From a virus, in the IMG/VR virus record IMGVR_UViG_3300042564_004498, positions 32,001 to 96,000 of that record: a stretch of DNA of 64,000 nucleotides; one strand, written 5' to 3'. Position 1 is the stretch's first letter. Each line of letters starts with the position of its first letter. The position numbers and the translations under genes were made by a program. The notes under the pieces are model-generated. The model ran no database searches, was not told where the DNA came from, and saw only the letters and a list, made by a program, of their open reading frames with translations. Shown one piece after another: positions 11,124 to 60,439 of the stretch.

Positions 11124-11157
11124 AAAAAACCCTTCTTAGGAGAAGGGTTGTTTTTTT
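11124..11157. terminator. Bidirectional intrinsic terminator
   Basis: AACCCTTCT-TAGG-AGAAGGGTT flanked by A and T runs. Confidence 0.75.
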
Positions 11158-11996
11158 CTTTTAATTGTTTTGGTATCGTTATCTTTAACAGAGTAAATTA
11201 CAAACACATCTTTCTGTGGATAAATTAAAATGTCCACGGCTTTATGTCTTCCTTTACTAACATCTTTCTTGAATGACTCACCTTGTCCTTCACTTGATTT
11301 CACTTGTATTGTTTTTACCTCACCTCTTGAAGATTTGAAAATTAAATCTGTTGAGAATATCATATCAATAAAATCTCCGTCTCCACCTTGGTATAATAAT
11401 TCATAACCTGGTATTGACCCAATTGTATCGGCAACTTCATTTTCAATTTTTTCTCCCCATTCAGAATTTCTTCTAATATTGGTAGTGTAATCCAATAATT
11501 CATTGGGAGAACTCAAATATTGACTAAAAAGACCTGATAAGTTGTCTTTATACTTCAATAATACTTCTTTTACCTCATCTTCATCTTTGGAATTACTTAT
11601 TGTGTTAATAATTTCAGTAGCGGCTGGACGACCATTATTTTTAGATAAAAATAACAAATCGGTTAAAAGTTTAGCTAAATCGGAAAAATTTGTGTTTAAT
11701 TTGTTAACAGGATGCCATTTACCATCAATATAAACTAATCTTTTACTTGGAAGACTTTCCAAAAATCTATTATAAGTGTAATCATTGATTTTACCGTTAT
11801 CTTTTAAGATATTGACCCCCATAATATATCTTTCAATATCATCTTCTCCAATATTTGTTTTGATTTCATCAAGAATATTATCGATTATTGATTGTAAACC
11901 TAAACCATCATTTCTTGATAACCAAGATTTTAACTTATTCAACGAGTTGAATATTGACTCATGGTCACCTTCTCTTTGTTCTTTTATTAATTTCAT
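11136..11996 (-). CDS. Tagged protein with C-terminal PD-(D/E)xK-like nuclease domain
   Basis: MKLIKEQ leader; E...IDMIFSTDLI...TIQVKS. Confidence 0.55.
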   Translation of the reverse strand: MKLIKEQREGDHESIFNSLNKLKSWLSRNDGLGLQSIIDNILDEIKTNIGEDDIERYIMGVNILKDNGKINDYTYNRFLESLPSKRLVYIDGKWHPVNKLNTNFSDLAKLLTDLLFLSKNNGRPAATEIINTISNSKDEDEVKEVLLKYKDNLSGLFSQYLSSPNELLDYTTNIRRNSEWGEKIENEVADTIGSIPGYELLYQGGDGDFIDMIFSTDLIFKSSRGEVKTIQVKSSEGQGESFKKDVSKGRHKAVDILIYPQKDVFVIYSVKDNDTKTIKRKKQPFS

Positions 11997-11997
11997 A

Positions 11998-12858
11998 TTA
12001 ATGCTGTACTCTTAATCTATCGGTATTATATCCCAAACTTTGTATTAACTCACGAACTTCTTCAGTAAAAGTTGATGTATGTCTCCACGCATTACTTTTA
12101 AAAGTTAAGTTAATTAGTCCACCAACATTATTAGTTGATGTATTAAATTTCACTGAGTGTAATACTTGGGAATTAGGGAGAGCTCTAATTTTCTTTTTTA
12201 TTTCTTTATTTAATGTTTGTTTGACCCATTCATCGACCCCCTGATATACAAATGCACCACTCATATTTAAATCTAATTTTCCGTGGGTAACACTACCAAT
12301 TTCAACACCAATAAAATTAGTTAATGTTTCCATAAAGTCATTTCCCAATTCCGCGGCTCGATAATTTTTTTCAGATTTATCACGAATTGACTTATCAAAA
12401 TCAACACTAAAAAAACCATTTACAACATAAGGAGAATCTTCAGTTAAATTAAGTGTTATCCATTCAGGTAACTCTAACCTATCAGTAAAAAAAGTAATCG
12501 CCTTTTTGTACCTTTCAAGAAAAAGTCCTTCATTTTTAAGACTTGGCATTTTGTGAACGCCTTTTTGTGCTAATTCTCTTCCAACATTAACCATAGTACG
12601 ATAAGCACCATAATAACCTGTAACCACATCAGCAGCGCCATAATCTTCTGCAAATTCTTTCATATGATTTTTAATCAATAAAGAAAGAGGGTATTGACCT
12701 ATTTCATCACCGTGGTTTTTTTTAACCCATGGTCTAAAATAGTTCACAAAAACTTCAACAAAGTCTTCATCCTGGTATTCTTTTGGATTAAAACTTTCTA
12801 AGACAGTTCTTACAACTTTCTCAAGGTCAGATTCGGTAAGTGTGTGTATTTTTTTCAT
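11998..12858 (-). CDS. Tagged hypothetical protein
   Basis: MKKIHTLTESDL leader; TATTTAT-N5-ATG. Confidence 0.75.
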   Translation of the reverse strand: MKKIHTLTESDLEKVVRTVLESFNPKEYQDEDFVEVFVNYFRPWVKKNHGDEIGQYPLSLLIKNHMKEFAEDYGAADVVTGYYGAYRTMVNVGRELAQKGVHKMPSLKNEGLFLERYKKAITFFTDRLELPEWITLNLTEDSPYVVNGFFSVDFDKSIRDKSEKNYRAAELGNDFMETLTNFIGVEIGSVTHGKLDLNMSGAFVYQGVDEWVKQTLNKEIKKKIRALPNSQVLHSVKFNTSTNNVGGLINLTFKSNAWRHTSTFTEEVRELIQSLGYNTDRLRVQH

Positions 12859-12861
12859 TAC

Positions 12862-13032
12862 TTATAAATACTCATTAGGAATGATATGCACAACTTTATT
12901 TGTCATCCCATTCATAACCCGATAAATTGTGTTTTTTTGTTTTTCACTAATAGTGTCAAGAGTAAGCATAAACTCGTAAAGACCTCTTGTCAATTTAAGT
13001 TCCATATACTCTTCAAATTCTCTAGATTCCAT
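12862..13032 (-). CDS. Hypothetical protein
   Basis: MESREF...; TATTTTTG promoter-like motif upstream. Confidence 0.5.
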   Translation of the reverse strand: MESREFEEYMELKLTRGLYEFMLTLDTISEKQKNTIYRVMNGMTNKVVHIIPNEYL

Positions 13033-13102
13033 AATACAAACAAAAATAAACAAAAAACCCCACTTAATAAAGTAGGGTTATATTATTATTTGATTTCAAA
13101 AT

Positions 13103-13696
13103 TTAAAATCCTAAAATTTCGTGTCGTTTAACCGTATCAACAATATCTAAATAGAAATCTTCAAGGTCTCTTTCTCCTGATTCAATTTGATTAATAATTT
13201 CTTGTCTTTTATACCCTGTATTTTTATCAATGAAGTCAATCATTTCATCGTCAGTAATACCTTCAGGTTTTATTGGCTCAGGTATACACTCATGGTCTCT
13301 TTCAACAACACCAATGTCATCAACATATAATCCCGTTTCACCAACCATTTCTTCAAATTTAGGTATCATAATATCTTCATACCACTCTTCAATCACATGT
13401 AGCACAAAAGATTCTTTAACGGTAAACAAAGATTGTATTGTTTTAATAAAGTTTTTAGAAACAATTAAGTGTCCCCCTTCAAAATTTTCATCTTCAAAAT
13501 AAAATATTGCTGTAATCGCCTCTACCCCATCAACACACCAATCCTCCCGAAGATTACCATAATTACGAGATTTTTGTGTGATTTTTCTCTGACCTTCTTC
13601 AATATATTGATTTAGGTATTTTGTAATTGCGTTTTGTAACACGGGACTACTTTTTACAAATCTTTTATATTGTTCTTCAGTTATAATGTATTTCAT
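13103..13696 (-). CDS. Tagged WFE-family protein
   Basis: MKYIITEEQY; AITKYLN...VIEEWYE; TATTTAT-N5-ATG. Confidence 0.75.
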   Translation of the reverse strand: MKYIITEEQYKRFVKSSPVLQNAITKYLNQYIEEGQRKITQKSRNYGNLREDWCVDGVEAITAIFYFEDENFEGGHLIVSKNFIKTIQSLFTVKESFVLHVIEEWYEDIMIPKFEEMVGETGLYVDDIGVVERDHECIPEPIKPEGITDDEMIDFIDKNTGYKRQEIINQIESGERDLEDFYLDIVDTVKRHEILGF

Positions 13697-13719
13697 GTTA
13701 AATAAATAGTTTTGAAATT

Positions 13720-13752
13720 AAAAACCCCCAACATAGTTGAGGGTTTCTTTTT
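13720..13752. terminator. Intrinsic terminator
   Basis: AAACCCCCAAC-ATA-GTTGAGGGTTT with flanking runs. Confidence 0.7.
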
Positions 13753-13760
13753 TCATTATG

Positions 13761-14318
13761 TTAATTTTCTTCAATTTTTCGTTCATCCATCACTTCACGA
13801 TAACCCTCATATAACGAATCTCTAAGTTGATATAAGTTATCATAAATTTCGTCATGATAATCATCATCGTTCATCATCTCTTCAAAATCAATCCCCTCTT
13901 CATAATCTTCAATATCGTCGTAGTCTACGGCGTATACAAATGCACCAATAGGGGCATACCCTTCATCTTCATATGTTCCATAAACAACGGTGTCTCCACC
14001 AAGTACTTCAACAAGTTTTTGTAAATACTCTGTCGGAACACTCCAAGCTGACTCAATTACTAAATCAACATCTGATGAATACTCGTCTATTTCAGATTCA
14101 ATGGTAATCCATTTGGAACCAACATTCTCGGTCATCCATTCTCTATCCATAAAATTATCAGGTTCACTAAACTCAGTCCCGTATAATTTATTGATATTAT
14201 TTACAATATCCACATATAAAGTGTCATCACTTTTACTTACAAGAAGTTCTTTTAATTTAATAAAAGTTTCTTCGTTAAGATTCTCAACCTTAACATAAGT
14301 GGTCATGGTATTTGCCAT
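13761..14318 (-). CDS. Acidic protein with YubB/DUF1281-like ferredoxin-fold motif
   Basis: WMTENVGSKW...IESAWSVP...GTYEDEG. Confidence 0.55.
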   Translation of the reverse strand: MANTMTTYVKVENLNEETFIKLKELLVSKSDDTLYVDIVNNINKLYGTEFSEPDNFMDREWMTENVGSKWITIESEIDEYSSDVDLVIESAWSVPTEYLQKLVEVLGGDTVVYGTYEDEGYAPIGAFVYAVDYDDIEDYEEGIDFEEMMNDDDYHDEIYDNLYQLRDSLYEGYREVMDERKIEEN

Positions 14319-14488
14319 TAATTCTCTAAAATTGATTTGCCCAAAATTAACGGAGAACCTGTTTGACTCTTCACAACTGTGAAATGAGAATCATACTCCT
14401 TGATGAATAAGGTGTCATCTTTACCAAATAATTGTCTGTAATTGTTTTTTGCGTAGTCTTCTACTTGTTTTGAAACTTCTGGTGTCAT
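14318..14488 (-). CDS. Hypothetical 56-aa protein
   Basis: MTPEVSKQVEDYAK...; TTTG-N19-TATATTTG promoter upstream; TAATG coupling to the next gene. Confidence 0.65.
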   Translation of the reverse strand: MTPEVSKQVEDYAKNNYRQLFGKDDTLFIKEYDSHFTVVKSQTGSPLILGKSILEN

Positions 14489-14557
14489 ATTTTTAATTAT
14501 TAAATTATACTGTCACAAATATAGAATAAATTTGTGACAAAACAAATTAATTTTTAA

Positions 14558-14920
14558 TTAAAAAGTTCCAACATCATTTACTTGAAGACCCGTATGTCCT
14601 TCAAACCATTCTTTTACCATTGGTTTCCAAGAATCTTCACCAAAATAAGCATCAAATGACCCATAAATCCCTTTTGGTAATACCAAGAATGGACAATCCA
14701 TACTTGTATTGATATCATGGTTATTACAACTTACCCACCACATATGGTCGTAGTCGTCAAATTCAGGCATCCCTACCAAAGAAAAAAAATACTCAGGCTC
14801 ATTATCATCATATGGTGATTTAAATCCATCATATGGAATTAATTTATCATTGATAAATTCTAAAATGGCGTTGTTACGCTTCCAATTATTTAATTGTTGT
14901 TCGGTTATAATATATTCCAT
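14558..14920 (-). CDS. Tagged WFE-family protein
   Basis: MEYIITEQQL...WKPMVKEWFEGHTGLQV; TATTTAT-N5-ATG. Confidence 0.8.
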   Translation of the reverse strand: MEYIITEQQLNNWKRNNAILEFINDKLIPYDGFKSPYDDNEPEYFFSLVGMPEFDDYDHMWWVSCNNHDINTSMDCPFLVLPKGIYGSFDAYFGEDSWKPMVKEWFEGHTGLQVNDVGTF

Positions 14921-14954
14921 CTCTAATAAATACTCTAACCTTTTAGTTTGGGTA

Positions 14955-15176
14955 TTAAGATTTATTGCCCTTTACAGGTGTTTTTCCTATAATTTTCCAT
15001 ACTTTTTTAATTGGTGCCCCTAATAAGTCATCAAAGGCCCCAATAATAAATGAACTATCATTAATATTATCACTACTACGATTTCTTATTTCAAAAACTA
15101 ACTCTTCACCTTGATGAATTGTACTTTCATCTGTGATTAAATAATCAACTTTTCCTATTATTACATTCATTTCCAT
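14955..15176 (-). CDS. Hypothetical protein
   Basis: ORF in gene-dense context. Confidence 0.5.
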   Translation of the reverse strand: MEMNVIIGKVDYLITDESTIHQGEELVFEIRNRSSDNINDSSFIIGAFDDLLGAPIKKVWKIIGKTPVKGNKS

Positions 15177-15212
15177 AAACCAATAATAAGTTTTTATTTG
15201 TATATGTCAAAT

Positions 15213-15239
15213 AAAAAACCCCTCTTTGTGGGAGGGGTT
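15213..15239 (-). terminator. Intrinsic terminator
   Basis: AACCCCTC...GAGGGGTT stem with U-tract on the minus strand. Confidence 0.7.
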
Positions 15240-18922: not shown

Positions 18923-20041
18923 TTAAAGTGGGTTATTTTTGTTTTTCAATAAAGAGTATAATTTACTTAATTTTTTTGTCATTTTTAGACAAATGTTTCT
19001 TGTCTGATTAATCTCGTATTTGATGAATTTCTCATAGTCACCACCAAATCTTGTAACCCTATCCAAATATTTGTCAAAATATTTTTGTTTCTTTCCACTA
19101 AACCCAAAGAGTTCTTCAATAAACTCTTGTGTTAAATATGACTTCATTGTGCCTGCTCTCCAATTCAATAAAGTCTTAAAGAACTCCTTTAATGTTACAT
19201 CAACCATTTCGTCATCTGATGCATCTTCAGGATAATTAATATTATTATCGTCAAAAGTTTCTTTAATTTGGGGGATAATCTTTTTTAAATCATCCCTTAG
19301 TTTTTCATAAGTTAAATTGGCTCCGTCTTTATAAATCTCATAAACTTTATTATTTGTGATAAATTTATAAAAATCTTCTTTGGTGATTCCTTCCTCCTCC
19401 AACGCAGCATACAATTCTGTGGCTCTAACCAAATTTTCTGTGGTATGAGCAAAATACATATAATGTAATAATTTATTTAATGGTGGTATATTTCCAAATT
19501 GTCTTTGACTTCCAATTTGATATTCAACTCGTTTATTGGTTTTTAAGTTTGGGTTAACAGATTCATCGTAACCGTGTTTTATCTCATGAGCCAAACTTGA
19601 GATGATTACTACTTTTTCTTTTTTAAACTCATCAATTAAATCTTGAGTTGTTGCGTCATTATCTAAAGTCATATTAATTGACAAATCAATTACATCCATA
19701 TCACGATTAGTAGTGTAATTGAATTTATTGTTCATCTCCACTGTACTACGATGGGTCATACCTCTTAGATATATTTTTTGTCTACTATCCCCATTAACAT
19801 CATATTCATCTAAACTATCAACATTAAATTCCAAGTTAATAGTGTCAAACTTATAATCATTAATTTGAAAATTTCCCTTTAATACTATTGGTTTTTTTAT
19901 GAAAGATTTTAATTTGGTGGTTGGTTTAAGTTCCGACATCATTTTGTCGTATAGTTGTCTGGCAATGTCAACGATATTAGTTGGGACACCAACCGCTTCG
20001 TTTAATTTTTTATATTGAGATTCTGTTAATACGTATTTCAT
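18923..20041 (-). CDS. Tagged protein with HExxH metallopeptidase-like motif
   Basis: MKYVLTESQYKKLNEAVG; LAHEIKHGYD; TATTTAT-N5-ATG. Confidence 0.7.
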   Translation of the reverse strand: MKYVLTESQYKKLNEAVGVPTNIVDIARQLYDKMMSELKPTTKLKSFIKKPIVLKGNFQINDYKFDTINLEFNVDSLDEYDVNGDSRQKIYLRGMTHRSTVEMNNKFNYTTNRDMDVIDLSINMTLDNDATTQDLIDEFKKEKVVIISSLAHEIKHGYDESVNPNLKTNKRVEYQIGSQRQFGNIPPLNKLLHYMYFAHTTENLVRATELYAALEEEGITKEDFYKFITNNKVYEIYKDGANLTYEKLRDDLKKIIPQIKETFDDNNINYPEDASDDEMVDVTLKEFFKTLLNWRAGTMKSYLTQEFIEELFGFSGKKQKYFDKYLDRVTRFGGDYEKFIKYEINQTRNICLKMTKKLSKLYSLLKNKNNPL

Positions 20042-20277: not shown

Positions 20278-20583
20278 TTAATCATCATCACTAAAGTCCC
20301 AATTAACAATCTCATTAACAGGATAATCATACGTTTCTTCAAACCATTCACCAGCATATTCCAAAGCGTCCTCACCCGAAACATTAAACATGGCCGCAAA
20401 CCCAAAGATGATATCATTAGAAACCAATAATTTATTATTATAAATCTTATAATGCCAAGTCTGATTGCCATGGTTGTTTTCAAGGGAAAGATAATGTTGT
20501 GTTTCCTTAACATTATAATCAGGAGAATCAAAATATTTCCACATTAAATTCTTAACCTGTGATTCTTTAATAATATATTCCAT
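20278..20583 (-). CDS. Tagged WFE-family protein
   Basis: MEYIIKESQV...AGEWFEETYDYPV; TATTTAT-N4-ATG. Confidence 0.8.
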   Translation of the reverse strand: MEYIIKESQVKNLMWKYFDSPDYNVKETQHYLSLENNHGNQTWHYKIYNNKLLVSNDIIFGFAAMFNVSGEDALEYAGEWFEETYDYPVNEIVNWDFSDDD

Positions 20584-20604
20584 AATGATAAATACTCAAC
20601 TATC

Positions 20605-24032: not shown

Positions 24033-24353
24033 TTAATTAGACTTGAATCTTTTTCTTATAATAACATCTTTTACAGGTAGTCTATAATCTTTCTTTACCC
24101 ATAACTTAATTACCTTATGGATTTGTTTTTCATTTAATTTAAAAAAATCCATTAACGAAAAATGTATTCTACTGTCATCAGATGAAATAAACAATTCCAT
24201 AGGTTTCTTCTTATACAAGAAAATAATATTACCATCACTTTCCGAAAAAATAATGTTAGGACCTATGTCTTCCCGTTTTAAATTTGGAAACTCCTTTCGT
24301 AACCATTTAAGGATAACACTAAATAACCTCTTCTCACTTATAATATATTCCAT
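24033..24353 (-). CDS. Tagged WFE-family protein
   Basis: MEYIISEKRL...VIKLWVKKDYRLPV; TATTTAT-N4-ATG. Confidence 0.75.
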   Translation of the reverse strand: MEYIISEKRLFSVILKWLRKEFPNLKREDIGPNIIFSESDGNIIFLYKKKPMELFISSDDSRIHFSLMDFFKLNEKQIHKVIKLWVKKDYRLPVKDVIIRKRFKSN

Positions 24354-27621: not shown

Positions 27622-28185
27622 TTAATAGAATGATTTTAATTCCATGTACGGCCCCAAATTATATTTGTCTATAATCTGTTTGAAGATTTGTTGTCTGTAT
27701 CTTGAACCCAATATGTTCTTTTTACTAATGAATCCATAACCAAATCCTGAATCACCACTTAATCCCACCACTTTGTAATATGGTTGGTCGTGAAGATTTG
27801 TCGGATATAATCTTGCGGTGAATTTATATCTTAAACCACCCTTAGGTCCGAATGAAAAGTCCCCTAATTCTTTTTCACCACGATGTAGTGGTCGTAAATT
27901 ATCATTTAGTCCAAGTTTTTCAACCAACGCTTCATGTATGTATAGCGCTGTTTTGTCTACAGACATATAAACAAGTGGTGTATGAGTATCTTCACTGAAC
28001 ATCATAATATCTCCATCATAAAGAACATTTATTAAATTATCAATTCCACCCATTAGTTTAGATGTAATTTGTATCCCTGATTGTTTTAACATGGATTTTA
28101 ATGCATCTTTTTTTGAATCGGATTGTTCGTTAATAACCCCTCCCATCATTGATTGTATCCTATGTATGTTCTCTTGTAAGTTCAT
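27622..28185 (-). CDS. Tagged hypothetical protein
   Basis: MNLQENIHRIQSMMGGVINEQ leader, shared with the upstream gene. Confidence 0.75.
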   Translation of the reverse strand: MNLQENIHRIQSMMGGVINEQSDSKKDALKSMLKQSGIQITSKLMGGIDNLINVLYDGDIMMFSEDTHTPLVYMSVDKTALYIHEALVEKLGLNDNLRPLHRGEKELGDFSFGPKGGLRYKFTARLYPTNLHDQPYYKVVGLSGDSGFGYGFISKKNILGSRYRQQIFKQIIDKYNLGPYMELKSFY

Positions 28186-28186
28186 A

Positions 28187-28960
28187 TTATTTAAAGTCAG
28201 GTAGTTTGGTGTCTTTAACAAATTTGTTATGTGAAGCTTTATATGATTTTTGAGTTTCATCGTTCACATCTTTGGTGTATTGCCAATTCCAATATAAATC
28301 ATCGTTTGGTTTGAAACCATAGAACTCATGAACCTTTTTTTGTATTTCAGTTACGTTCTCACCATTCCAATTCTGTCCAACACAAATAAACCCTGTCTCT
28401 ATATCCTTAACAAGATTTGATTCCCCCAATGTTGCGTGTCTATTCTCAATCCAAGTTAGTCTCTCGATTAAGTTTTGGTAGAACATATTGGTTTGTCCCC
28501 ACCTGATGGAACTAAAAAATATAACTGCGTCAGATTCAAATAACTCTTTTGATATCTTCCATAGTTCATCCTTTGGATTGTTATAACTTGCCCAACATCT
28601 ATGGTCACCTGATGGATTTTTCTTCTTATCTTTAAGCATGGATTTTAACACCCCACAACTATTCCCATCTTTTCTTGATACATTCCCTTCACAAGGAACT
28701 ATATTAAGTTCGGAAACATCAATTAAAACTGATGTATCTTTTAACTCATCGTTAAGGTACATGGCAATCGCCTTTGATTTTGGAATATCTTCGTTCTCCT
28801 TATCCCAATTATATCTATTGGAACAACTTAAGATTAAAACTTTCTTTTTATCTTTAAGAATATCTAATGTTTTCTTGATTGATTTCCATGCGTCGGACTG
28901 AACCATCTCTTCGGCAATCATCATCTCTCTTATTCTTTGTATGTTTTCTTGTAAGTTCAT
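28187..28960 (-). CDS. Tagged flavodoxin-fold / NADPH-dependent FMN reductase-like protein
   Basis: MNLQENIQRIREMMIAEE; ILSCSNR, IVPCEG, ESDAVIFFSSIRWG, LIERL; TATTTAT-N4-ATG. Confidence 0.7.
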   Translation of the reverse strand: MNLQENIQRIREMMIAEEMVQSDAWKSIKKTLDILKDKKKVLILSCSNRYNWDKENEDIPKSKAIAMYLNDELKDTSVLIDVSELNIVPCEGNVSRKDGNSCGVLKSMLKDKKKNPSGDHRCWASYNNPKDELWKISKELFESDAVIFFSSIRWGQTNMFYQNLIERLTWIENRHATLGESNLVKDIETGFICVGQNWNGENVTEIQKKVHEFYGFKPNDDLYWNWQYTKDVNDETQKSYKASHNKFVKDTKLPDFK

Positions 28961-29484: not shown

Positions 29485-30006
29485 TTACCATGTTCTACAT
29501 GCCCAATATCTTGGTTTCCATCTTGGTCCAGGGTTATCACAATTATGTCTAGCCCTAAATGATTTTCTTCTTTCAGGATTATTCTTTTTAATCCTCATTA
29601 TTTTACCATGAGCAGATTTTCCTCCAAACCCAAAGTTAACCTTTACAACCTTACCCTTATCGTTTTTAACATATACCTTTGACTTCTTAACATCACCTTG
29701 CATAATTTTACCAAGTTGGACCTTACGCCCTTGGTATTCAGCTTCGGTTAACAAATCACCAATAACAAAGTTGGTTTCTTCAACTGAACCATACTTATCC
29801 TCATACAAAGTTTTATTTTTTGAGGTCTCTTCAATCTCTTCAGATTCATTCTTAACGCAATTTGGATATCTTTTACCAAACATTGTTTTCATCCCTTTTT
29901 TGGTATAACCTTTCCAACAACCTTCAGTCATTTCAGTTTCTTCTGCAAGAACACGTTTGATTAAATGAATCAAATCTCCTTCAGTAAGTTTAATAATCTT
30001 TGTCAT
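29485..30006 (-). CDS. Tagged modular protein with basic C-terminal phage domain
   Basis: MTKIIKLTEGDL; CWKGY...PNCVK module; LLTE|AEYQGRKV...SFRARHNC...RYWACRTW. Confidence 0.75.
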   Translation of the reverse strand: MTKIIKLTEGDLIHLIKRVLAEETEMTEGCWKGYTKKGMKTMFGKRYPNCVKNESEEIEETSKNKTLYEDKYGSVEETNFVIGDLLTEAEYQGRKVQLGKIMQGDVKKSKVYVKNDKGKVVKVNFGFGGKSAHGKIMRIKKNNPERRKSFRARHNCDNPGPRWKPRYWACRTW

Positions 30007-30011: not shown

Positions 30012-31001
30012 TTATTGTTTTAAATGTTTAAATCTAAATTCTATCTTCGCTCCTTTTGGGTCTTCCGCCTTCCATCTGAATCTCTTACCAATATAGTCTT
30101 TAAGTTCTCCCCTCATTTTGATTTTGATTGCGTCTTCCACCTTAGTTGAATCAAGGTTAGGAATCTCCCCCTTTAAATAGTTTTGTGGTGTAGTCACTTG
30201 GGTGTTGTTTTCTCTTTTAAGAACATCATATACATCTATGTCCACGAAAGCTTTGTCATCATTCACATCTATATTCTTTACTTGGAACTTTATATTTGTA
30301 TTTGGAACCATTTGTTCTGGGTCCCGATTCCAATAGTTGAACGTCTTTGCAGTTTTCTTTCTCTTTTTTAAATCAGGTTCAATATTTTTTAATTTCTGTA
30401 CCTTATTCTTCATTATCTCCTCGTGACTATATCCTCTTTCTAATAGTTTCATCTCCTCAGGAGTTAATGTGTACAAATTGTCAAACTCTTTATTGTCCCA
30501 CGATACAGGATTGGAATTACTCATTTGTCTACTCGTGGATGAAGAATAATTTGCAGTTACCTCATACCACTTATCATCTTTGAATATGTAAACTGGGTAC
30601 CATCCGTATGATGCAACTTTGTAGTATGGAATTCCTTTTGGGTCTTCAGTCCAATAACCCTCTAAGTTTGAACCCCTGAAAGGTAATTGGGCTATTGTGT
30701 ATAACTTCGCATTTGGATTTGATATAACTTTACCCTTTTGTTTTCTTGGGTCAACAAAGTTCTCCTTTGTTAGATTTGAATAGTCACCATCTTTTTTAAA
30801 GTTTAACACATACAATTCCAAAATATATTGTTCAAACCCTTCAGGTATTCCCATATATGGCGCCATGTGTTTGATGACGGTCAATAAAGATGCTCTCGTT
30901 CTATTTTTTTTCTTCTCCTCGTCTAATAACTTGAATAGCTTGGAAACCACTTTTAATGATGGCTCATTGGACTCTTCCGATATTGTGGTAATTGTTTTCA
31001 T
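30012..31001 (-). CDS. Tagged hypothetical protein
   Basis: MKTITTISEE; SYGWYPVYIF...YSSSTSRQM; TATTTAT-N5-ATG. Confidence 0.7.
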   Translation of the reverse strand: MKTITTISEESNEPSLKVVSKLFKLLDEEKKKNRTRASLLTVIKHMAPYMGIPEGFEQYILELYVLNFKKDGDYSNLTKENFVDPRKQKGKVISNPNAKLYTIAQLPFRGSNLEGYWTEDPKGIPYYKVASYGWYPVYIFKDDKWYEVTANYSSSTSRQMSNSNPVSWDNKEFDNLYTLTPEEMKLLERGYSHEEIMKNKVQKLKNIEPDLKKRKKTAKTFNYWNRDPEQMVPNTNIKFQVKNIDVNDDKAFVDIDVYDVLKRENNTQVTTPQNYLKGEIPNLDSTKVEDAIKIKMRGELKDYIGKRFRWKAEDPKGAKIEFRFKHLKQ

Positions 31002-35243: not shown

Positions 35244-35618
35244 TTATCTTGTGATGATTGGTAATGTATTATCACAGTTTTTTACTTTTTTAACATAAAT
35301 GTCTGTTGGTTCCCCGACATAACTATAAACTAATTGCCAAATCTCATCAATTATATCATCATACATTTTACGGTCAGCTTGTGTCACAGGAAAATATTTG
35401 GTCCCATGGCCACCAATAACTTTAACATCTATTCTGTAATGTGAGAATCCAAATTCTTGATTTGATGCCAATTCCCTGTTGTGTGGTGCAATAACTTTCA
35501 CACCACAAACAATTCCATCATGTGAGGGTAAAAAATTTGTTTCCAATAACTTGGTTATCATTGGAGATAAATCTTTCTCTGTTTCTTCTTTTATTATTCG
35601 TCTAATAAGTTCTCTCAT
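35244..35618 (-). CDS. Tagged hypothetical protein
   Basis: MRELIRRIIKEE; TATTTAT-N5-ATG. Confidence 0.7.
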   Translation of the reverse strand: MRELIRRIIKEETEKDLSPMITKLLETNFLPSHDGIVCGVKVIAPHNRELASNQEFGFSHYRIDVKVIGGHGTKYFPVTQADRKMYDDIIDEIWQLVYSYVGEPTDIYVKKVKNCDNTLPIITR

Positions 35619-47221: not shown

Positions 47222-47470
47222 TTATTTATTTTTACAAATATGTTCTTGGTAACAACCTTGACCAGCACCTTCAAGATAACCATCCCTCAAGTCTATGTGT
47301 GTAGATATTAAATAAGGCGTATCTTTACCGCATATTACACATTTATCATATTGTGGTTGTTCAGAGTTTCTCTTTGCCTCCCAATATTTATTTCGGACTT
47401 TTTCACCAAGCATCTCATTATTTGGTGTTTCCAAAATTTCTTTTTCTGTTAAAGTAACTAATATTTCCAT
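47222..47470 (-). CDS. Small Cys-containing protein
   Basis: CVICGK...YLEGAGQGC. Confidence 0.6.
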   Translation of the reverse strand: MEILVTLTEKEILETPNNEMLGEKVRNKYWEAKRNSEQPQYDKCVICGKDTPYLISTHIDLRDGYLEGAGQGCYQEHICKNK

Positions 47471-47532: not shown

Positions 47533-47922
47533 ATGATTAATGAAGAAATTTTAACAGAAAAAATTAAATATATTATAATCTCTGAATCAGGAAAAGAATT
47601 TGAGATTATGGATGTCTCATTAGAAATGGATTATTTATCTAACGACAAATTAACAATTGAATCGTATCGTGTTTTTGTTAAATTTGATTATAATAATGCT
47701 ATTGACCCTGATTTACATTATTTCACTAAAGATATTACAAGAATGTCTGAAAAAATGCGTAATATTATTAGCAAATATGTGATAGACTCCAAAGGTAAAT
47801 TAATACAAGGAGGTGAAAATACTTCCATAAGTGAAGGTGATATTTGGACATTAGATTTCGCTGCAGATGAAAGACATATTTTTGATATGTCTTACCTAAT
47901 TGTACCAAATAAAGAAGATTAA
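47533..47922 (+). CDS. Hypothetical protein
   Basis: TATTTAT-N4-ATG; MINEE. Confidence 0.7.
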   Translation: MINEEILTEKIKYIIISESGKEFEIMDVSLEMDYLSNDKLTIESYRVFVKFDYNNAIDPDLHYFTKDITRMSEKMRNIISKYVIDSKGKLIQGGENTSISEGDIWTLDFAADERHIFDMSYLIVPNKED

Positions 47923-51565: not shown

Positions 51566-51590
51566 CTTTTTAAAACTTTTTTTTAATTAG

Positions 51591-51663
51591 TAGCGGGAGA
51601 AGGACTCGAACCTCCGACCTTATGGTTATGAGCCACACGAGCTGCCAACTGCTCTATCCCACG
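51591..51663 (-). tRNA. tRNA-Met(CAT), initiator-like
   Basis: CGTGGGA TA GAGC AGTTGGCA GCTC G TGTGG CTCATAA CCATA AGGTC GGAGG TTCGAGT CCTTC TCCCGCT A; C1 unpaired, A11-U24; no encoded CCA. Confidence 0.92.
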
Positions 51664-51677
51664 ATGTTTGTTGTTAG

Positions 51678-51750
51678 TTGCGTAGGGCCGGAAACGAACC
51701 GACTTGGACTGGCTTATGAGACCAGTGAGATACCTTACCTCCCCCTCGCG
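51678..51750 (-). tRNA. Atypical tRNA-Met(CAT)
   Basis: CTGGT-CTCATAA-GCCAG anticodon arm, GTCGG-TTCGTTT-CCGGC T arm, acceptor stem with a 1-nt bulge and C1.A72 mismatch. Confidence 0.75.
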
Positions 51751-52020: not shown

Positions 52021-52374
52021 ATGAAGGTAAGAATTAACGATAACAGTTTTAATGTAAAAACATTAATTGATAGAGAATCCCAATCAATTGGGATGATGGG
52101 TAAAGCATTTGATGGAACTTTTAATGGATTGTTATTCTTAATGGATGGTAAGAAACAATGTTTTTGGATGAAGGGTTGTGTAATTCCATTAGACATAATC
52201 ATTATAAAGAACAATGTGATTGTAAATATACATCACGATTGTCCTCCATGTAATAATGAATTTGATTGTCCTTCCTATTGTGGAAACGGTAATATTGTAT
52301 TAGAACTTGAGGGTGGTTCTTGTGAAATCCTCAACATTCAACCGGGTGATAGTATCACTTACGACTTATCTTAA
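52021..52374 (+). CDS. DUF192 family protein
   Basis: GMM...GLLF...FWMKGCVIPLDIII...VLELEGG...GD; TATTTAT-N5-ATG. Confidence 0.85.
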   Translation: MKVRINDNSFNVKTLIDRESQSIGMMGKAFDGTFNGLLFLMDGKKQCFWMKGCVIPLDIIIIKNNVIVNIHHDCPPCNNEFDCPSYCGNGNIVLELEGGSCEILNIQPGDSITYDLS

Positions 52375-53783
52375 TCCTCCGAAGAATTTTTAGACTCCTC
52401 AATTTTTTTCTTTAATACTTTTTGAAATTCAGTAGCAATCATTTTTGTAAACTTAACTGATGGTGAATCATCTTTCTCAGAATCATACTTATACTTACCT
52501 TGTGGTGGTCTTTTACCTCTACCTAAATAATTAAGTCCTGAGATATTGGTAATACATTTGTGACCACCAGAATTAGACTGAATTAAATCCCAAGCATTAA
52601 TACCAATTTTATCCATCAATTCAAGTTCTTGTTCAGATAATTCATTGAATGGTTTTTCCATCATTCTTTCAATTTTTCCTAAGGCTTCTTCTCCACCGTC
52701 CATGAATACAAATTTTCCACCGTAAAGAGCGTCAAAGTCTTTAAAAGTAAAACCAACACTTTCAGGTCCAGCACTTGTTTCACTAACCCATTTCATAGTT
52801 GACAAAGGAATTTTCCTATCCTTTAATTGAGATTCCCATCTAACCAAAACTTCTTGAGCTATCTCCCCAAGATTAACCCCTTTAAGTTCTCTTTCTTTTT
52901 TAAACGGATTACAAGATGCTTGAACAAGACCCATCGGCCAAGCCATGATAAGAAAATCCGCCTCAGGATTATTTCTGAATGGTGTATATCTGTCGTAAGA
53001 CCCAGGCTTAAACATACTACCCCCACCGTATTGAAAAATAATGTTATCAGACACTGTTGGATAGTCTGCCATTTTGTCTGCATAATCTTGTGCATTTTTT
53101 TGTAAGTCTTCAGGTTTGGCGGCATTTGTTTTTGTCATCCAAGCTCTAATGTTATTTAGTATAGACAATAAAGAAGGTTCAGAATCCATAACCAATCCTT
53201 CTAAAAATCCTGGTTTGTTTTTAAAAGCTAAAAGTAATTTGTTTATTACTAAACCTAATAACATTTTATTCTTTTGTAATGAAGAGTCTTTATCTATTCT
53301 GTAGATATAATTAACCACTTCTTTTGGTGTAATATCATGTTTTGCATAATCCGCAGAATCCACGGTATTAATCAATAATATATCAGATGATGGGAATAAA
53401 TCTGTTGGTGAAACTACTTGAGAAATAGTCTCAACATTTGAACGAGCCCCTCTAAATTGTTTGGAGGTACCCTTTTCAACACCAACTTGTTTATCGTGAT
53501 GGTCTGTGTGAATCACAAACATTGGTTTACCATGAGCAAAATCTACTAGAACAGGCATTGTATCCCCTTGAGCGTCATTCTTTTTAACCGAGAACTCCTT
53601 ATCACCATATTGTATAATATGGGCACCAACAACATCAATACCGTTGTCTTCAAGGTATTTTTTCATCGCAATCGCTGTTGTTACCCCATCAAGGTCTTGG
53701 TGAAAATAAATCTCAGCTTTTTGATATCTTTTCTTTAAGGCGTTGATATTTCTCAACCCTGATTCTGATATAATTCTTTTCAT
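52371..53783 (-). CDS. Tagged DHH-family phosphoesterase
   Basis: MKRIISESG; FHQDLDG, LVDFAH, HTDHH, SGGH. Confidence 0.75.
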   Translation of the reverse strand: MKRIISESGLRNINALKKRYQKAEIYFHQDLDGVTTAIAMKKYLEDNGIDVVGAHIIQYGDKEFSVKKNDAQGDTMPVLVDFAHGKPMFVIHTDHHDKQVGVEKGTSKQFRGARSNVETISQVVSPTDLFPSSDILLINTVDSADYAKHDITPKEVVNYIYRIDKDSSLQKNKMLLGLVINKLLLAFKNKPGFLEGLVMDSEPSLLSILNNIRAWMTKTNAAKPEDLQKNAQDYADKMADYPTVSDNIIFQYGGGSMFKPGSYDRYTPFRNNPEADFLIMAWPMGLVQASCNPFKKERELKGVNLGEIAQEVLVRWESQLKDRKIPLSTMKWVSETSAGPESVGFTFKDFDALYGGKFVFMDGGEEALGKIERMMEKPFNELSEQELELMDKIGINAWDLIQSNSGGHKCITNISGLNYLGRGKRPPQGKYKYDSEKDDSPSVKFTKMIATEFQKVLKKKIEESKNSSED

Positions 53784-53786: not shown

Positions 53787-54134
53787 TTAAAATAATTTAC
53801 TTATCCAAGCAACAGCTTTATCAATAATGTCTTGGTCCAATCCTAATTTATGTAATGCTGTATATGTGTCAGGTCCTGGAATTCCGTCAGGGTTAATATT
53901 CTCTTTTTCTTGGAATTTTTTAAGAGCGTTAACCGTAGTTGGTCCCCATTTTTCATCCACAGGTATTTGGAATAATTTACCATTCACCCCAACTTTTTTC
54001 ATTTTAAAATAATCATTAAGAGCCGTTTGTAATTCAAACACTTCTTGACTACTTAGTTGATTTTGTTCTTTAATAACTCTTCTAACTAATTTAGTTAAAT
54101 CTGATTCTGTTAATCTTATAATTCTTTTTGCCAT
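53787..54134 (-). CDS. Tagged peptidoglycan-binding domain protein
   Basis: MAKRIIRLTESDL...VIKEQ; LQTAL...WGPTTVNALKKFQ...DGIPGPDT. Confidence 0.8.
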   Translation of the reverse strand: MAKRIIRLTESDLTKLVRRVIKEQNQLSSQEVFELQTALNDYFKMKKVGVNGKLFQIPVDEKWGPTTVNALKKFQEKENINPDGIPGPDTYTALHKLGLDQDIIDKAVAWISKLF

Positions 54135-54157: not shown

Positions 54158-55222
54158 TTACATTCCAGGGATTGGATTTACTTGTCCCGTGAATAAACCT
54201 CTTAAGAATTTAGCGAATGGGTCACCTGTGACATTGTCACTTGACACACTCTGTGATATATCATCTGCGGTATTTTTGATAGGGTCTACTGGTGAGTTTC
54301 CTTCTTTAAACGATTGATTAAAATATTCTTTAGATTCGGGAGTTTTCTGATAATCTTCCATTGACTTAATCATTTCATTTTCACTACCTAATTTTTTAAT
54401 AACTTCTTCCGCTCCTACCCAATTTCCAATACCAATATAATCCAAGAACCCTAACCACCATTTGGTTTGCTGCATCATAATCTTTAATCTTCTACCTTCA
54501 GGGCTTCGGAACACTCTTGGAATTCCTCCGAAGAATGTTTGACTCAAAAATCCAGGTTTAGATAGTGCCGCAACATCAAATACTTTACTATCTTTCATCA
54601 AATCTTTAAGTGCCTGAATATCATGAATTTTAGCTTTACCTAACTTCATGTCGGCTTCTAATGATTTTGCCAAACCACTAACACCTTTACTTTTAGTACC
54701 CGCTCTACCCAATAAAGTGAAATAATCCATAATAGTGTTCTTCATACCTTTGAATGGTCCCACAGGAAGTTCTTTTAAAAAACTATTAACTTTTTCTGCC
54801 CATCCACCAGTACCACCAGCACTTTGTAAGAATTTACCAACAGGTCCTGGGTCTTTAGCAAGACTTGAAATCATTTCAGTTGCTTTTGCAGGATTAGTTT
54901 TAGATAGTTTTATTGCCGCTTCTAATTCTTTTGTTGCTTTGGAGCCAATTTTCATTGCTCCCATAACAGGCTTAGCGACAATGTCACCAACAAAAAATGG
55001 AACCGCAGCTACTAAACTTAAGACACCAAAAAGGGTATCTCCTTGTATAAAATAAGAAATAGCATTGATTGAATCGGTGATTGGTGTTGGGTCTATGATA
55101 CCGACAATATCCATCACATTGTTATACCACGCCTCATTAATTGTTTTCTCACCATTTTTATCTTTAATGATGGATTCTTTAATTAATTTTAATTGGTGTT
55201 CAGTAATTATAATTTCACTCAT
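54158..55222 (-). CDS. Tagged protein with pre-toxin-TG-like hydrophobic segment
   Basis: MSEIIITEHQL...INE|AWY; VGIIDPTPITDSINAISY...SLVAAVPFFVGD. Confidence 0.65.
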   Translation of the reverse strand: MSEIIITEHQLKLIKESIIKDKNGEKTINEAWYNNVMDIVGIIDPTPITDSINAISYFIQGDTLFGVLSLVAAVPFFVGDIVAKPVMGAMKIGSKATKELEAAIKLSKTNPAKATEMISSLAKDPGPVGKFLQSAGGTGGWAEKVNSFLKELPVGPFKGMKNTIMDYFTLLGRAGTKSKGVSGLAKSLEADMKLGKAKIHDIQALKDLMKDSKVFDVAALSKPGFLSQTFFGGIPRVFRSPEGRRLKIMMQQTKWWLGFLDYIGIGNWVGAEEVIKKLGSENEMIKSMEDYQKTPESKEYFNQSFKEGNSPVDPIKNTADDISQSVSSDNVTGDPFAKFLRGLFTGQVNPIPGM

Positions 55223-56530: not shown

Positions 56531-56531
56531 A

Positions 56532-56963
56532 TTATTTTTTAAATATTTTTTCAACACATTCGGCAACAGTGATGTTGTCGGTGCACATGTCAATGTAATT
56601 TTCTGTTGGTGGTTCATAGTCTTGAACAAAGAATTGTTCCCTACCTCTTACCTCTGAAGTATAAACATAAACTTCTTTTATTGCATTTTCAAGTTTCTCT
56701 TTGAATGCATCTCTTTGTCCTTTGTAAGGAGACACTAATGATACTAAAACATTTTGTCCTTTGGAGTGAAGATATTGAGCCAAATGTTGAGCTAATTGTA
56801 TATTCTTCATTCGTCCTTCTTTTGAATAATCTTTATTATCAAATAATTCTCTAATATCATCACCATCAATATGGTACCAATTATTGAAGTACCTTAACTC
56901 CATAATTGATTTTGCCAATGTTGTCTTACCTGCACCAGGTTGTCCTGTTAACCAATAAATCAT
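56532..56963 (-). CDS. cysC: Adenylyl-sulfate (APS) kinase
   Basis: WLTGQPGAGKTTLA, IDGDDIR, YSKEGR, SLVSPY, YEPP. Confidence 0.85.
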   Translation of the reverse strand: MIYWLTGQPGAGKTTLAKSIMELRYFNNWYHIDGDDIRELFDNKDYSKEGRMKNIQLAQHLAQYLHSKGQNVLVSLVSPYKGQRDAFKEKLENAIKEVYVYTSEVRGREQFFVQDYEPPTENYIDMCTDNITVAECVEKIFKK

Positions 56964-57190
56964 TTTTCTAAGTTTTTAATTTTTCTCTCCAAATACCATA
57001 AAGCTTTCTTTAAATCTTGGAGTTCTTTATCCGAGTCTTTTTTACCCGCTCTCGCAACATACTTAACAACATTGAAGATGTAAGCATCTTTATCAAGCCC
57101 CCAAGCCTCGCAAACTTTTACAACTTCATATGGATTATCCTGACCACCGTAATGTTCTGGGTGGTTAACCATTTCTTTATTTTTACTCAT
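56960..57190 (-). CDS. DUF3310 family protein
   Basis: VNHPEHY...NVVKYVARAGKK...DLKKALWYL. Confidence 0.85.
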   Translation of the reverse strand: MSKNKEMVNHPEHYGGQDNPYEVVKVCEAWGLDKDAYIFNVVKYVARAGKKDSDKELQDLKKALWYLERKIKNLEK

Positions 57191-57413
57191 AATTTCACTA
57201 TGTAATATTTCCCCAATTTAAGAGACTTTTTATGGCCATTTCTAACAGAAAACAATGGTTTTGTGGTCACATTAATTCCAAACCCATTATTAAATCTAAT
57301 AGACCATCCTGATGGTGAAGTACTAAATAAAATAGAATAATCAAATACTCTAATCACAGTTTGACTACAACCACTACCAATATAATATGTTTTCTTAGAT
57401 ATACACATAATGA

Positions 57414-57641
57414 TTATTGGTTATCACTTCGTTTTCCTCTCTTAGTCGGTACTTGGTCGGTTACTTGGTCGGTTACTTGGTCGGTCTTTTTAACTTTACC
57501 TCTGTATTCTTTCCAATCTGATTTTGGTGTGTAAGCCCAGTTACCACCTTTTACTCTAATTCCAGCGTCATAGTCGGTAGTTCTCATAACTTCCCCTAAT
57601 TCTCTACCTTTTGTTTGTCTAATTAATTTAATGCACTTCAT
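57414..57641 (-). CDS. Small basic protein with DQVT repeats
   Basis: 12-bp tandem repeat x3 at ~57446-57485. Confidence 0.6.
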   Translation of the reverse strand: MKCIKLIRQTKGRELGEVMRTTDYDAGIRVKGGNWAYTPKSDWKEYRGKVKKTDQVTDQVTDQVPTKRGKRSDNQ

Positions 57642-57843
57642 TGTTTCCTCCGTGTTTTTTATTGTTAATAATTATAAGAATTTCTTTATCTGACTTACCT
57701 TTACAATATAACTTATGAATAAAATCACCCATCTTATCTTCAAAGATTAAAGCATCACTCTTACCATAATATTGTTTTAGCCTACCATTGTTTAAAGCAT
57801 TAATACTTCCTTCAAGAGTAACCCATCGTTTATTAAATCCCAT
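57628..57843 (-). CDS. Hypothetical protein
   Basis: MGFNKRW...DALIFED. Confidence 0.6.
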   Translation of the reverse strand: MGFNKRWVTLEGSINALNNGRLKQYYGKSDALIFEDKMGDFIHKLYCKGKSDKEILIIINNKKHGGNNEVH

Positions 57844-57860
57844 AAGTAATTATAAGAAAC

Positions 57861-58640
57861 TTATTTTTCAGAGTCAAAGGAATTCATCTTTTCAAGGTTA
57901 ACAATTTGAAAAATGTATGCCATTAGTTTTCTTTTCATGATTGGAATCATGGTTTGTTCCATTGGTAGTTTTTGAGAACATTTCATCTCAAATATTGGAA
58001 GGTCTTTATAAGAATCTGTATGATTCCATTTTGTGAAAGTATTGATAACACTAGTTAGTGTCATCCCATTCAAAGTATTATCGTAAATTAAATTAATATA
58101 AGTTTTATTATTATGAGTATCCCCTTTTGGTTTTTTTATTTCATATTCCCAAACCATTAATTTTTCATTTTCTTTATCAAAATAAAACATATAACCCATA
58201 CCAGAGATTAATCCTTTTTTGTTTTTTTTAAGAAAAATGTCTGTACTATCATAGGCTAAATTCCATATTGATTTTGCAATATTAAACGCATCAAATAATT
58301 TTCCACCTGAAAATGTAAGAGTCTTATCTAACTCACTTTCTTCATCATTTGATAATTGTCTTGGTTTTTTTGAAATAAGTTCTTTAACAAGGATTTCATC
58401 ATCACACGACTCAAATTTTTTATTAGTCAGTAATAATGTATTTTCTTTAACAATAGATTGTAAGTTCGCCAAATGTAGCGACAATTCAACAAAGTCAGGA
58501 TATATTTCCAACTTATCAAATCCTTTTTCACATTTTTGTAAGTAATCTAATAAAGTATATTTGTTATATTCAAAATCAATAGGCTCTTTGAACATCCACT
58601 CAGGATTTAACTTAAATGATATTTTTTTCTTTCTTCCCAT
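57861..58640 (-). CDS. Hypothetical protein
   Basis: W...PIDFEYNKYTLLDYLQ. Confidence 0.7.
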   Translation of the reverse strand: MGRKKKISFKLNPEWMFKEPIDFEYNKYTLLDYLQKCEKGFDKLEIYPDFVELSLHLANLQSIVKENTLLLTNKKFESCDDEILVKELISKKPRQLSNDEESELDKTLTFSGGKLFDAFNIAKSIWNLAYDSTDIFLKKNKKGLISGMGYMFYFDKENEKLMVWEYEIKKPKGDTHNNKTYINLIYDNTLNGMTLTSVINTFTKWNHTDSYKDLPIFEMKCSQKLPMEQTMIPIMKRKLMAYIFQIVNLEKMNSFDSEK

Positions 58641-58666
58641 TTTTCAATAATACAATTAATGATAAA

Positions 58667-60439
58667 TTAATCAATTCTGATTACATAAAATAACTCATCT
58701 TTCACATAAATCTCATCAGCACTACCATCATAACTACTTATAGTTGCACCATACCCATCAGCATTTATCACTCCTTGGATAAAATCATCTTTGTCAATAT
58801 AATTCTCCCAATCTAACCCATAATTTTGCATGAATTCTTCCGGGTCATAATTAACATCACGAACTAACTCATTAATCTTATCTTCAATCATATCCTCAGG
58901 GAAGTCTCCGTCAGGATTGGTTTCTATTTCTTCAATCTCTTCTTTAAATTCTTCAATAAGTTCATTTAATTCATCAATCTTGTCTTGAATACTTTCATCT
59001 CCTTCACCACCATCCATATGACTTTCCATGTCATTAATATGGTTTTCAAGTTTTTCAATTTTATTATTCAAGATTTCAATTTTTTCTTCTTGGTCTTCAG
59101 ATAACATTCTATCCTCATCACTAAAATAAGATTCAGGACTATCTCTCACATCATTTTCATAAACATCTTCCGCTTCTTTAACAATAGCTTCGGTGTCCAA
59201 ATACCCTTGAGCAAATCCTGAGTTAAATCCTGTATAACCAATATCATCAATTAAATTATCCACGTAGTCATAACAACTTTTTTGCATATCATCATCATCA
59301 CCAACCCCATATCTTCTACCATCTAAATCAGCATCAATAACTTCAAATTCAGTTAAGTCATAATGTTGTCCCACAGGAACAATGTTGTACACATCAATAT
59401 GTCCATCATAAGTTGTTAATTCATCCTCAAGAGCTTCAATTTCATCTAATATTTCAACATTTTCATCAGGTTCTCCTTCTCTTTCATCATCATCATATCT
59501 TCTTTTAAGTACCTCTATCTCATTATTAATTCTTAGAATATCCGCCCTGTCATCATTAGTTAATACACTAACATCTGAATTTTCAACAAGAAAGTTTAGT
59601 AATGCATGGGCCTCTAATCCTTCATCAGGACAATCACCATTCAAATCCCATTCCTCATCTTCTCTTCTCTCTTGAGCGTCTTCCCTCATTCCTTGAACTC
59701 TCTGTTGTTCTCTTAATCTTTCAAGTCTTTCTTTTTCTTTTTTGGCAGAAGCAATATCAGAATATATTTTAAGTTGTTCTCCGTATTCTTGTTGTAAATA
59801 AGAATCAACTGAAGATATTATTTCATTAATTTTGTTTGTGTTGAGTATCCATCCATTTTTAATTGCCTCATCTTTCGCGTCATAATAAATTGTACCCCCA
59901 TCAAATTTTCTTAATAACGCAACTTTATACAATGGGTCACTGGTTGCTTTAGTTCTATCTAAAATGTAGAATAACTTTCCATCTTCATTATATCTTTTGA
60001 ATTGGTAATCAGATTCTGCCGCAGTACACCACTTGGTACCTTTACCATAATAACACGAAGCGTCATGTGTTAATGGATTAACAACAAAAAACTTTCCATC
60101 ATCATAAACAACATTACCACCCTCAACTTTTTTAACATCTCTCCGAGCCCTATTATGATAGTTCACAATTGAGTTTATTAATTCATCAGCATTTTGATAT
60201 TGTGTAATATCAGTTTTTGGTAGGTTTGTTGAAATCTTATCAAACCTTTCAAGAGCATCTACTAATTTGGTAAAGTTCTCATCAAAGTTAATGTTGTCAG
60301 ATACCTTGCCTACCCACTCAAAATATTTTTGTGGTACTTTCTCAATAATTTTGTTCAAATTTTCAGGTGAAAATTTCTTTCCATACTTGGATTTAAAGTC
60401 ATCAACTCTTCCTTCTTGTATTAATTTTAAAAAATCCAT
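58667..60439 (-). CDS. Tagged large acidic protein
   Basis: MDFLKLIQE|G; ASCYYGKGTKWCTAA domain; coiled coils; TATTTAT upstream. Confidence 0.75.
   Translation of the reverse strand: MDFLKLIQEGRVDDFKSKYGKKFSPENLNKIIEKVPQKYFEWVGKVSDNINFDENFTKLVDALERFDKISTNLPKTDITQYQNADELINSIVNYHNRARRDVKKVEGGNVVYDDGKFFVVNPLTHDASCYYGKGTKWCTAAESDYQFKRYNEDGKLFYILDRTKATSDPLYKVALLRKFDGGTIYYDAKDEAIKNGWILNTNKINEIISSVDSYLQQEYGEQLKIYSDIASAKKEKERLERLREQQRVQGMREDAQERREDEEWDLNGDCPDEGLEAHALLNFLVENSDVSVLTNDDRADILRINNEIEVLKRRYDDDEREGEPDENVEILDEIEALEDELTTYDGHIDVYNIVPVGQHYDLTEFEVIDADLDGRRYGVGDDDDMQKSCYDYVDNLIDDIGYTGFNSGFAQGYLDTEAIVKEAEDVYENDVRDSPESYFSDEDRMLSEDQEEKIEILNNKIEKLENHINDMESHMDGGEGDESIQDKIDELNELIEEFKEEIEEIETNPDGDFPEDMIEDKINELVRDVNYDPEEFMQNYGLDWENYIDKDDFIQGVINADGYGATISSYDGSADEIYVKDELFYVIRID

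Follow-up and report, generated by a model that had tools for sequence, protein, structure and literature searches.

The DNA analysed here (the window, 64 kb) spans bases 32001-96000 of the 145,525-base viral contig IMGVR_UViG_3300042564_004498, from an uncultured phage. Between window positions 11136 and 60439 it carries a large set of genes whose products begin with a short leader peptide ending in hydrophobic-[I/L]-x-Glu. These leaders are probably capsid-targeting and processing propeptides of the kind found on internal proteins of bacteriophage T4, and would make up a greatly expanded system for loading proteins into the head and then clipping them; targeting, cleavage, residence in the virion and injection are steps that we infer. 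A packaging tag like that of T4 had been proposed in a first-pass annotation of the window. That proposal has indirect support in that related phages carry the matching head protease and capsid site, that the leaders end as T4 leaders do, that leaders are swapped at the glutamate joint, and that tail and replication genes are free of tags, while its promoter-plus-tag cassette and most of its payload labels were not sustained.

The phage is a freshwater phage of T4 type with a genome of about 300 kb. The contig is rated about 48% complete, has about 31% GC, and yields 219 genes in a simple gene call; the same DNA is contained in at least 20 lake-water metagenome DNA runs. Bacteroidota-type signal peptides and TAnnTTTG promoter boxes seen on the contig, together with the capsid protein of its relatives, whose closest cultured kin include a Flavobacterium phage, point to a freshwater Bacteroidota host. 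A near-identity DNA search among isolated phages returned a tRNA-like stretch as its sole match. Related loci were recovered through an alignment of homologues of a tagged protein with an HExxH motif, which led to 292 related viral loci; a single HExxH sequence used as query gave none. For comparison we used a complete relative of 308,574 bases (the 308-kb relative), in which about half of the contig's genes have homologues, with orthologue identity typically 40-70%. Tagged and untagged genes showed no significant difference in the presence or the identity of these orthologues. The gene content flanking tagged genes differs strongly among related contigs.

Leader classes and exchange at the glutamate joint

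Every start cited in the first-pass annotation reads as described there, and its figure of about 25 leader genes agrees with our count of 23 clear and 3-5 weaker cases, roughly one-sixth of the genes in this piece (Table 1). The leaders end in the hydrophobic-[I/L]-x-Glu motif throughout and fall into about five classes. Class A is the MKYIITE type, class B is a long leader with L-T-E-S-D-L plus a second site such as V-L-K-E, class C runs M-R-E-L-I ... I-K-E, and class D is the MNLQENI type; a few short leaders fall outside these four. Lengths range from 5 to 28 residues, and the long leaders often have two sites. Under a loose definition there are about 40 tagged genes on this half genome and about 58 in the complete relative, spread over many separate clusters.

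The payloads had been described as unrelated proteins. Most are indeed unrelated by BLAST once the first 25 residues are trimmed, but ten or more of the class-A genes form a single family of small proteins (100-130 residues) that share a C-terminal W-F-x motif and include much of the operon at 37837-41534. A profile of this small family finds 483 clusters (50% identity) in a library of 1.8 billion representatives.

The motif is bound to the N-terminus. In 17 proteins on the contig, residue 4 is the first of a hydrophobic-[ILV]-x-E motif, against a background of about 2 at any other position; the complete relative has 23 such proteins. The strict class-A pattern occurs 14 times at N-termini on the contig and never internally (43,553 residues); in the relative the figures are 15 and 1, and the one internal match lies directly behind an internal Met and is therefore a mis-called start. 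The codons under the shared peptide vary synonymously (Ser as TCN or AGY, Ile as ATA or ATT, Tyr as TAC or TAT, Thr as ACA, ACT or ACC), so that selection acts on the leader peptide, and what is conserved is neither a DNA repeat nor a DNA cassette. The portable unit of promoter plus tag envisaged in the first-pass annotation finds no support here: no repeat surrounds the starts, and the link to a promoter is only partial (see below).

Leaders differ among homologues in a way that leaves the joint intact. In the family of the HExxH protein, with 99 homologues, the mature part invariably begins A-V-G-V-P. Ahead of it stand 49 distinct leaders (at least 8 residues, up to 28, from several classes), and in every one of the 49, P1 is Glu and P3 is Leu or Ile. 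In orthologue pairs between the contig and the 308-kb relative, the leader class often differs and similarity picks up right after the Glu; such pairs include the genes at 13103, 29485, 30012, 35244, 38121 and 58667. The orthologue of gene 13103..13696 bears an 11-residue class-C leader instead, that of gene 30012..31001 a clear class-C leader, that of gene 58667..60439 a class-B leader, and that of gene 35244..35618 a different 13-residue leader ending L-V-E. Homologues of gene 29485..30006 in related contigs have a class-A leader in place of class B, and the orthologue of gene 52371..53783, 69% identical, has another 7-residue leader likewise ending I-x-E. Among the homologues of gene 11998..12858 in related loci, both Glu sites are retained and the other leader positions vary.

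Tail and replication genes are without tags. A block of 83 genes in the complete relative, which holds baseplate J, tail sheath, ribonucleotide reductase (RNR) and DNA polymerase B, has 0 tags, against 58 of 302 genes elsewhere (p 3e-7).

Head protease, capsid site and comparison with known systems

As checks, the first-pass annotation had suggested finding the prohead protease and looking for the same motif in capsid or scaffold propeptides. A T4 gp21-type protease with its catalytic motifs kept is present in most of the relatives searched, though not on the window's own contig. Peptidase S77 (the T4 gp21 family, PF03420) was identified at 78-88 bits, above the Pfam cut-off, in 8 of 9 related contigs, among them all six rated at least 90% complete (272-318 kb). 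In the 308-kb relative the protease (L098:11066-11791, minus strand) shares 34% identity with T4 gp21, retains the ELNHP and SSRG motifs, and is encoded in a head module whose order (portal, core protein, protease, scaffold, capsid protein) is that of T4. The second check was positive in the relatives. The gp23-type capsid protein has a 60-residue propeptide, near-identical in four genomes, that ends L-I-N-E/A (the slash marks the joint); this aligns with F-L-T-E/A of T4 (Glu65/Ala66), and the sequence straight after the site is variable. Scaffold and core-like proteins begin with such sites.

A cultured relative, Flavobacterium phage vB_FspM_immuto_3-5A (L120:5149-6759 and neighbours), has the same head-module order and a capsid propeptide ending I-V-S-E/A. 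A neighbouring gene in this phage encodes a 360-residue protein with an early F-I-A-E/A, like the T4 tag. The class-A DNA pattern was not found in immuto, which could serve as an experimental model.

In T4, gp21 cleaves after L/I-x-E and the first ten residues of IPIII suffice for head loading; this has been put forward as a possible way for T4-like phages to take a range of proteins into the head (PMC9026906, PMC3012670). In the T4 record, ipII, ipIII, gp24, gp67, gp68, gp21 and gp22 start with leaders of at most 10 residues ending hydrophobic-[L/I]-x-E. The proteins described here resemble the gp21-processed IPI, IPII and IPIII (and Alt) in having a short leader with this ending on otherwise unrelated proteins, and the lineage resembles T4 in its gp21-family protease, in a gp23-type capsid protein with the same site, and in head gene order, all seen here in relatives. 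They differ from T4 in that the leaders share with MKTYQEFIAE only the final hydrophobic-I-x-E, with no wider sequence similarity, and in that at least five interchangeable classes of 5-28 residues occur, often with two sites. T4 loads just a handful of such internal proteins, against the 40 or so tagged genes of this half genome and the 58 or so of the complete relative. The ip loci of T-even phages are hypervariable, with a variable gene set sharing only the leader; the variable gene content around tagged genes is alike, and the system described here is of much greater scale, with many more leader classes.

Giant phages related to phiKZ (phiKZ, 201phi2-1, SPN3US) have ejection and inner-body proteins processed by a diverged gp21 homologue, and dozens of their head proteins are cut after Glu at a three-residue motif, with redundant propeptide sites (PMC9026906). 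Many proteins with a Glu-ending three-residue motif and redundant sites are a feature common to both systems. The motif there is S/A-x-E, whereas P3 here is I or L as in T4, both in the 49 leaders of the HExxH family and in class-A leaders. The protease there is only remotely similar to gp21, whereas that of this lineage scores above the Pfam S77 cut-off, and no common short leader has been described there. Our search of the literature found no paper on the leaders of this lineage or on a comparable expansion of T4-type tags.

By analogy with T4, the tagged proteins would be made late in infection, and a short amphipathic N-terminal helix would bring each into the core of scaffold as the prohead assembles. 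There the serine protease of gp21 type, whose activity would be confined to the prohead, would cut after the Glu of hydrophobic-[I/L]-x-E, and the freed protein would remain in the head with the DNA and enter the host at infection. The lineage would have expanded this device to about 15% of its genes, with several interchangeable leader classes. The presumed cargo would be fast-changing and mostly orphan, consisting of a large family of small acidic proteins together with HExxH, peptidoglycan-binding and DHH-like proteins.

Several points weigh against such a system. The link to a head protease depends on the relatives: neither a gp21-type protease nor a gp23-type capsid gene lies on the window's 145-kb contig, which lacks the whole head module, an absence to be expected of a half-genome fragment. 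Some leaders have just 5-7 residues, below the 10-residue targeting sequence of T4. The predicted mature cargo is mostly acidic, with a median isoelectric point of 5.7, against 9.6-9.7 for the basic IPII and IPIII of T4. The loose tag definition wrongly takes in a few genes, a DnaG-like primase among them. Conservation within the small family is highest in the leader, which is continuous with helix 1, and a plain structural element would look alike. Finally, we know of no precedent for head cargo at one gene in six.

A more far-reaching proposal can be offered only tentatively, as one that may well prove wrong. A widespread lineage of freshwater Bacteroidota phages of about 300 kb might devote about 15% of its genes (40-60 proteins) to capsid cargo freed by the head protease, with the leader classes sorting cargo by amount, by position in the head or by order of release. 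Free recombination of leader and payload at the Glu joint would then amount to plug-in delivery of effectors that act against host defences in the first minutes. Injected proteins act before any phage gene expression, which makes them prime candidates for counter-defence. Should the tags function as they do in T4, sequence alone would reveal which proteins uncultured giant phages inject; in this lineage these would be dozens of mostly orphan proteins, the 483-cluster family among them. The loading device of T4 would then be scalable and open to diversification, which matters for the engineering of phage heads as protein carriers.

Other explanations of the shared start

The shared start might instead be a conserved N-terminal helix whose job has nothing to do with the capsid: it might serve oligomerisation, place the protein within the cell, or dock it to a host target or some other phage machine. 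Paralogy and domain shuffling would have spread such a helix, and the Glu would be a part of it and not a cut site. The presence of the leader on unrelated families would be left unexplained by such a helix, as would swaps of whole leader classes, 5-28 residues long, that keep only [L/I]-x-E, and the agreement of the conserved residues with the cleavage specificity of this lineage's head protease and with its capsid propeptide site. Support for this explanation comes from the small family, whose ten or more class-A genes are conserved along their whole length, with Ile5 and Glu7 at least 90% conserved. Fused, two-module forms of the family keep only I-x-E/S at the internal joint, as the start of the repeated domain, a feature that counts for head processing as well. 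AlphaFold2 (AF2) models were obtained for the HExxH protein (predicted local distance difference test, pLDDT, 89; predicted template modelling score, pTM, 0.87) and for the small-family member at 39687-40079 (pLDDT 82). In the latter the leader forms the start of helix 1, and in both it lies at the low-confidence start of the first helix, outside any sheet, so that its removal is structurally plausible as far as the models go. With the leader swaps and the protease on the other side, we consider a helix of unrelated function unlikely.

The 211-residue class-A protein of the operon (40081-40716) seems to be built of two modules. A 99-residue protein of the relative matches its first half, and its second half starts with a leader-like internal I-I-K-E-N-K-L and has the family W-F-x at the C-terminus; a profile comparison aligned the first 22 residues only.

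Another explanation would make the leaders propeptides or recognition tags for an enzyme acting outside the capsid, whether another Glu-specific protease, a modifying enzyme with many substrates, or the reader of a signal for timed activation or degradation. The motif matches the gp21 rule, and no obvious common enzyme neighbour was noticed across the clusters of tagged genes, of which no systematic neighbourhood survey was made. Such an enzyme could come from a radical-SAM-like gene at the window's left edge, but that gene sits in a sugar-modification cluster. We regard this explanation as quite improbable.

Promoter motifs bear on the proposed head loading as well as on the remaining explanation. 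TATTTAT occurs 132 times on the two strands of the contig, and 59 of these copies are on a gene's strand within 60 nt upstream of a called gene, with a sharp peak at -11/-12 from the ATG; TAnnTTTG peaks at -12/-13. With boxes so near the ATG (for example at window positions 13697-13708, 20584-20594 and 37825-37836), many transcripts would have little or no leader. TATTTAT stands ahead of the protease, scaffold and portal genes in all relatives and ahead of structural genes in immuto, and so it behaves like a late-type promoter motif. The first-pass annotation had placed nearly all tagged genes behind TATTTAT or in operons that start with it, and none directly behind a host-type promoter. The first part holds in part: TATTTAT at -14 to -9 precedes 13 of the 40 genes tagged under the loose definition and 15 of the 179 untagged genes (odds ratio 5.3, p 2e-4), and many tagged genes lie inside operons. 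The relative shows a weaker association, significant over a wider upstream interval only. The second part found no statistical support: TAnnTTTG is rare before strongly tagged genes, yet not significantly rarer than before untagged ones. The operon at 37837..41534 has a single TATTTAT, at -12 from its first gene, with intergenic gaps of 0-5 nt or overlaps. RNA runs matched this tagged operon in short partial stretches only, probably derived from relatives.

That the shared start is a by-product of gene expression, with a box 4-5 nt before the ATG of seemingly leaderless mRNAs and AT-rich first codons (Lys, Tyr, Ile, Thr, Glu) favoured for initiation, would suit the box positions and the 31% GC genome but is very improbable, because most tagged genes are internal to operons and have no box, their synonymous codons vary (for Ser even TCN against AGY), the Glu at P1 is invariant over leaders of very different length, and the motif is missing from untagged genes that follow this box directly.

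At 13.4 kb past the right end of the window (L114:13356-14153, minus strand), the phage encodes a factor of the sigma-70 family that has regions 2 and 4 (Pfam E 1e-15). This factor is a candidate for recognising one or other of the promoter classes.

Payloads, feature coordinates and neighbouring observations

Of the payload labels in the first-pass annotation, HExxH and peptidoglycan (PG)-binding stood, DHH did so only weakly, and nuclease-like, flavodoxin-fold and ART-like found no support in Pfam or PHROGs. The HExxH motif is invariant among homologues of the 372-residue protein. PG_binding_1 lies directly behind the 23-residue leader of a 115-residue protein (Pfam E 8.4e-13), and the DHH match in the 470-residue protein (E 7e-4) falls under the Pfam cut-off. 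Nine of ten tagged proteins had no match in PHROGs, and most tagged proteins are blank in Pfam. A PDB sequence search with the 470-residue and 354-residue proteins gave zero matches, as did tblastn against isolated phages with the HExxH protein and one small-family member. Residues 37-160 of the 590-residue tagged protein resemble a PA5oct protein annotated as structural by electrospray ionisation tandem mass spectrometry (ESI-MS/MS), a resemblance that speaks for the head-cargo reading and is the one hint of a tagged protein in a virion.

Foldseek against PDB together with VIA-align wide returned no convincing fold for the HExxH model (best Z 4.5, with M1 aminopeptidases at only 3.6-3.8). The HExxH protein, widespread in giant-phage contigs (292 loci), may possibly represent a new metalloprotein fold. 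For the small-family model, BFVD returned uncharacterised phage proteins only. The ESM Atlas yielded nothing beyond unnamed viral clusters.

Table 1. Genes with clear or possible leaders, in window coordinates. Sites are predicted cuts after the residue named; box positions are relative to the start codon.
Feature	Position	Strand	Leader and remarks
286-residue protein	11136..11996	-	short 6-residue leader ending I-K-E
286-residue protein	11998..12858	-	class B (L-T-E-S-D-L ... V-L-E), about 21 residues, two sites; TATTTAT at -12
197-residue protein	13103..13696	-	class A, 7 residues, site after Glu7; TATTTAT at -12
120-residue small W-F-x family member	14558..14920	-	class A; TATTTAT at -12
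372-residue HExxH protein	18923..20041	-	class A, sites after Glu7 and Glu15
101-residue protein	20278..20583	-	class A; TATTTAT at -11
106-residue protein	24033..24353	-	class A; TATTTAT at -11
187-residue protein	27622..28185	-	class D, site after Glu20; 28185 used as the start, which immediately follows the upstream gene's stop
257-residue protein	28187..28960	-	class D, site after Glu17; TATTTAT at -11; orthologue 93% identical
173-residue protein	29485..30006	-	class B, long, about 22 residues
329-residue protein, possible tag	30012..31001	-	I-S-E at residues 7-9; TATTTAT at -12
124-residue protein	35244..35618	-	class C (M-R-E-L-I ... I-K-E), 11 residues; TATTTAT at -12
Eight-gene operon	37837..41534	+	class A on all; starts 37837, 38121, 38996, 39372, 39687, 40081, 40717, 41115
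82-residue protein, possible tag (weaker)	47222..47470	-	sites after Glu9 and Glu14
129-residue protein, possible tag (weaker)	47533..47922	+	class-A-like motif at residues 10-18 behind a first I-L-T-E; TATTTAT at -11
470-residue protein	52371..53783	-	class A, 7 residues; weak DHH match from residue 25
115-residue protein	53787..54134	-	class B, 23 residues, then PG_binding_1 (residues 29-94)
354-residue protein	54158..55222	-	class-A-like, sites after Glu8 and Glu16; TATTTAT at -21
590-residue protein	58667..60439	-	9 residues ending I-Q-E; two paralogues in the genome

Two small genes at the contig's left end (L112:124-525) encode proteins 100% identical to those of the 308-kb relative; set against the typical orthologue identity, this suggests a recent exchange between the two genomes. 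Two adjacent tRNA-Met (CAT) genes lie at window positions 51590-51749 on the minus strand. RNA contigs from four lake metatranscriptome runs, belonging to four studies, cover window positions 43393-44000 at high depth (one at 183). Two of these RNA contigs have precisely 43393 as their first position, which falls in the non-coding gap 43347-43577 next to the gene at 43578-44205, and the signal fits an abundant small RNA.

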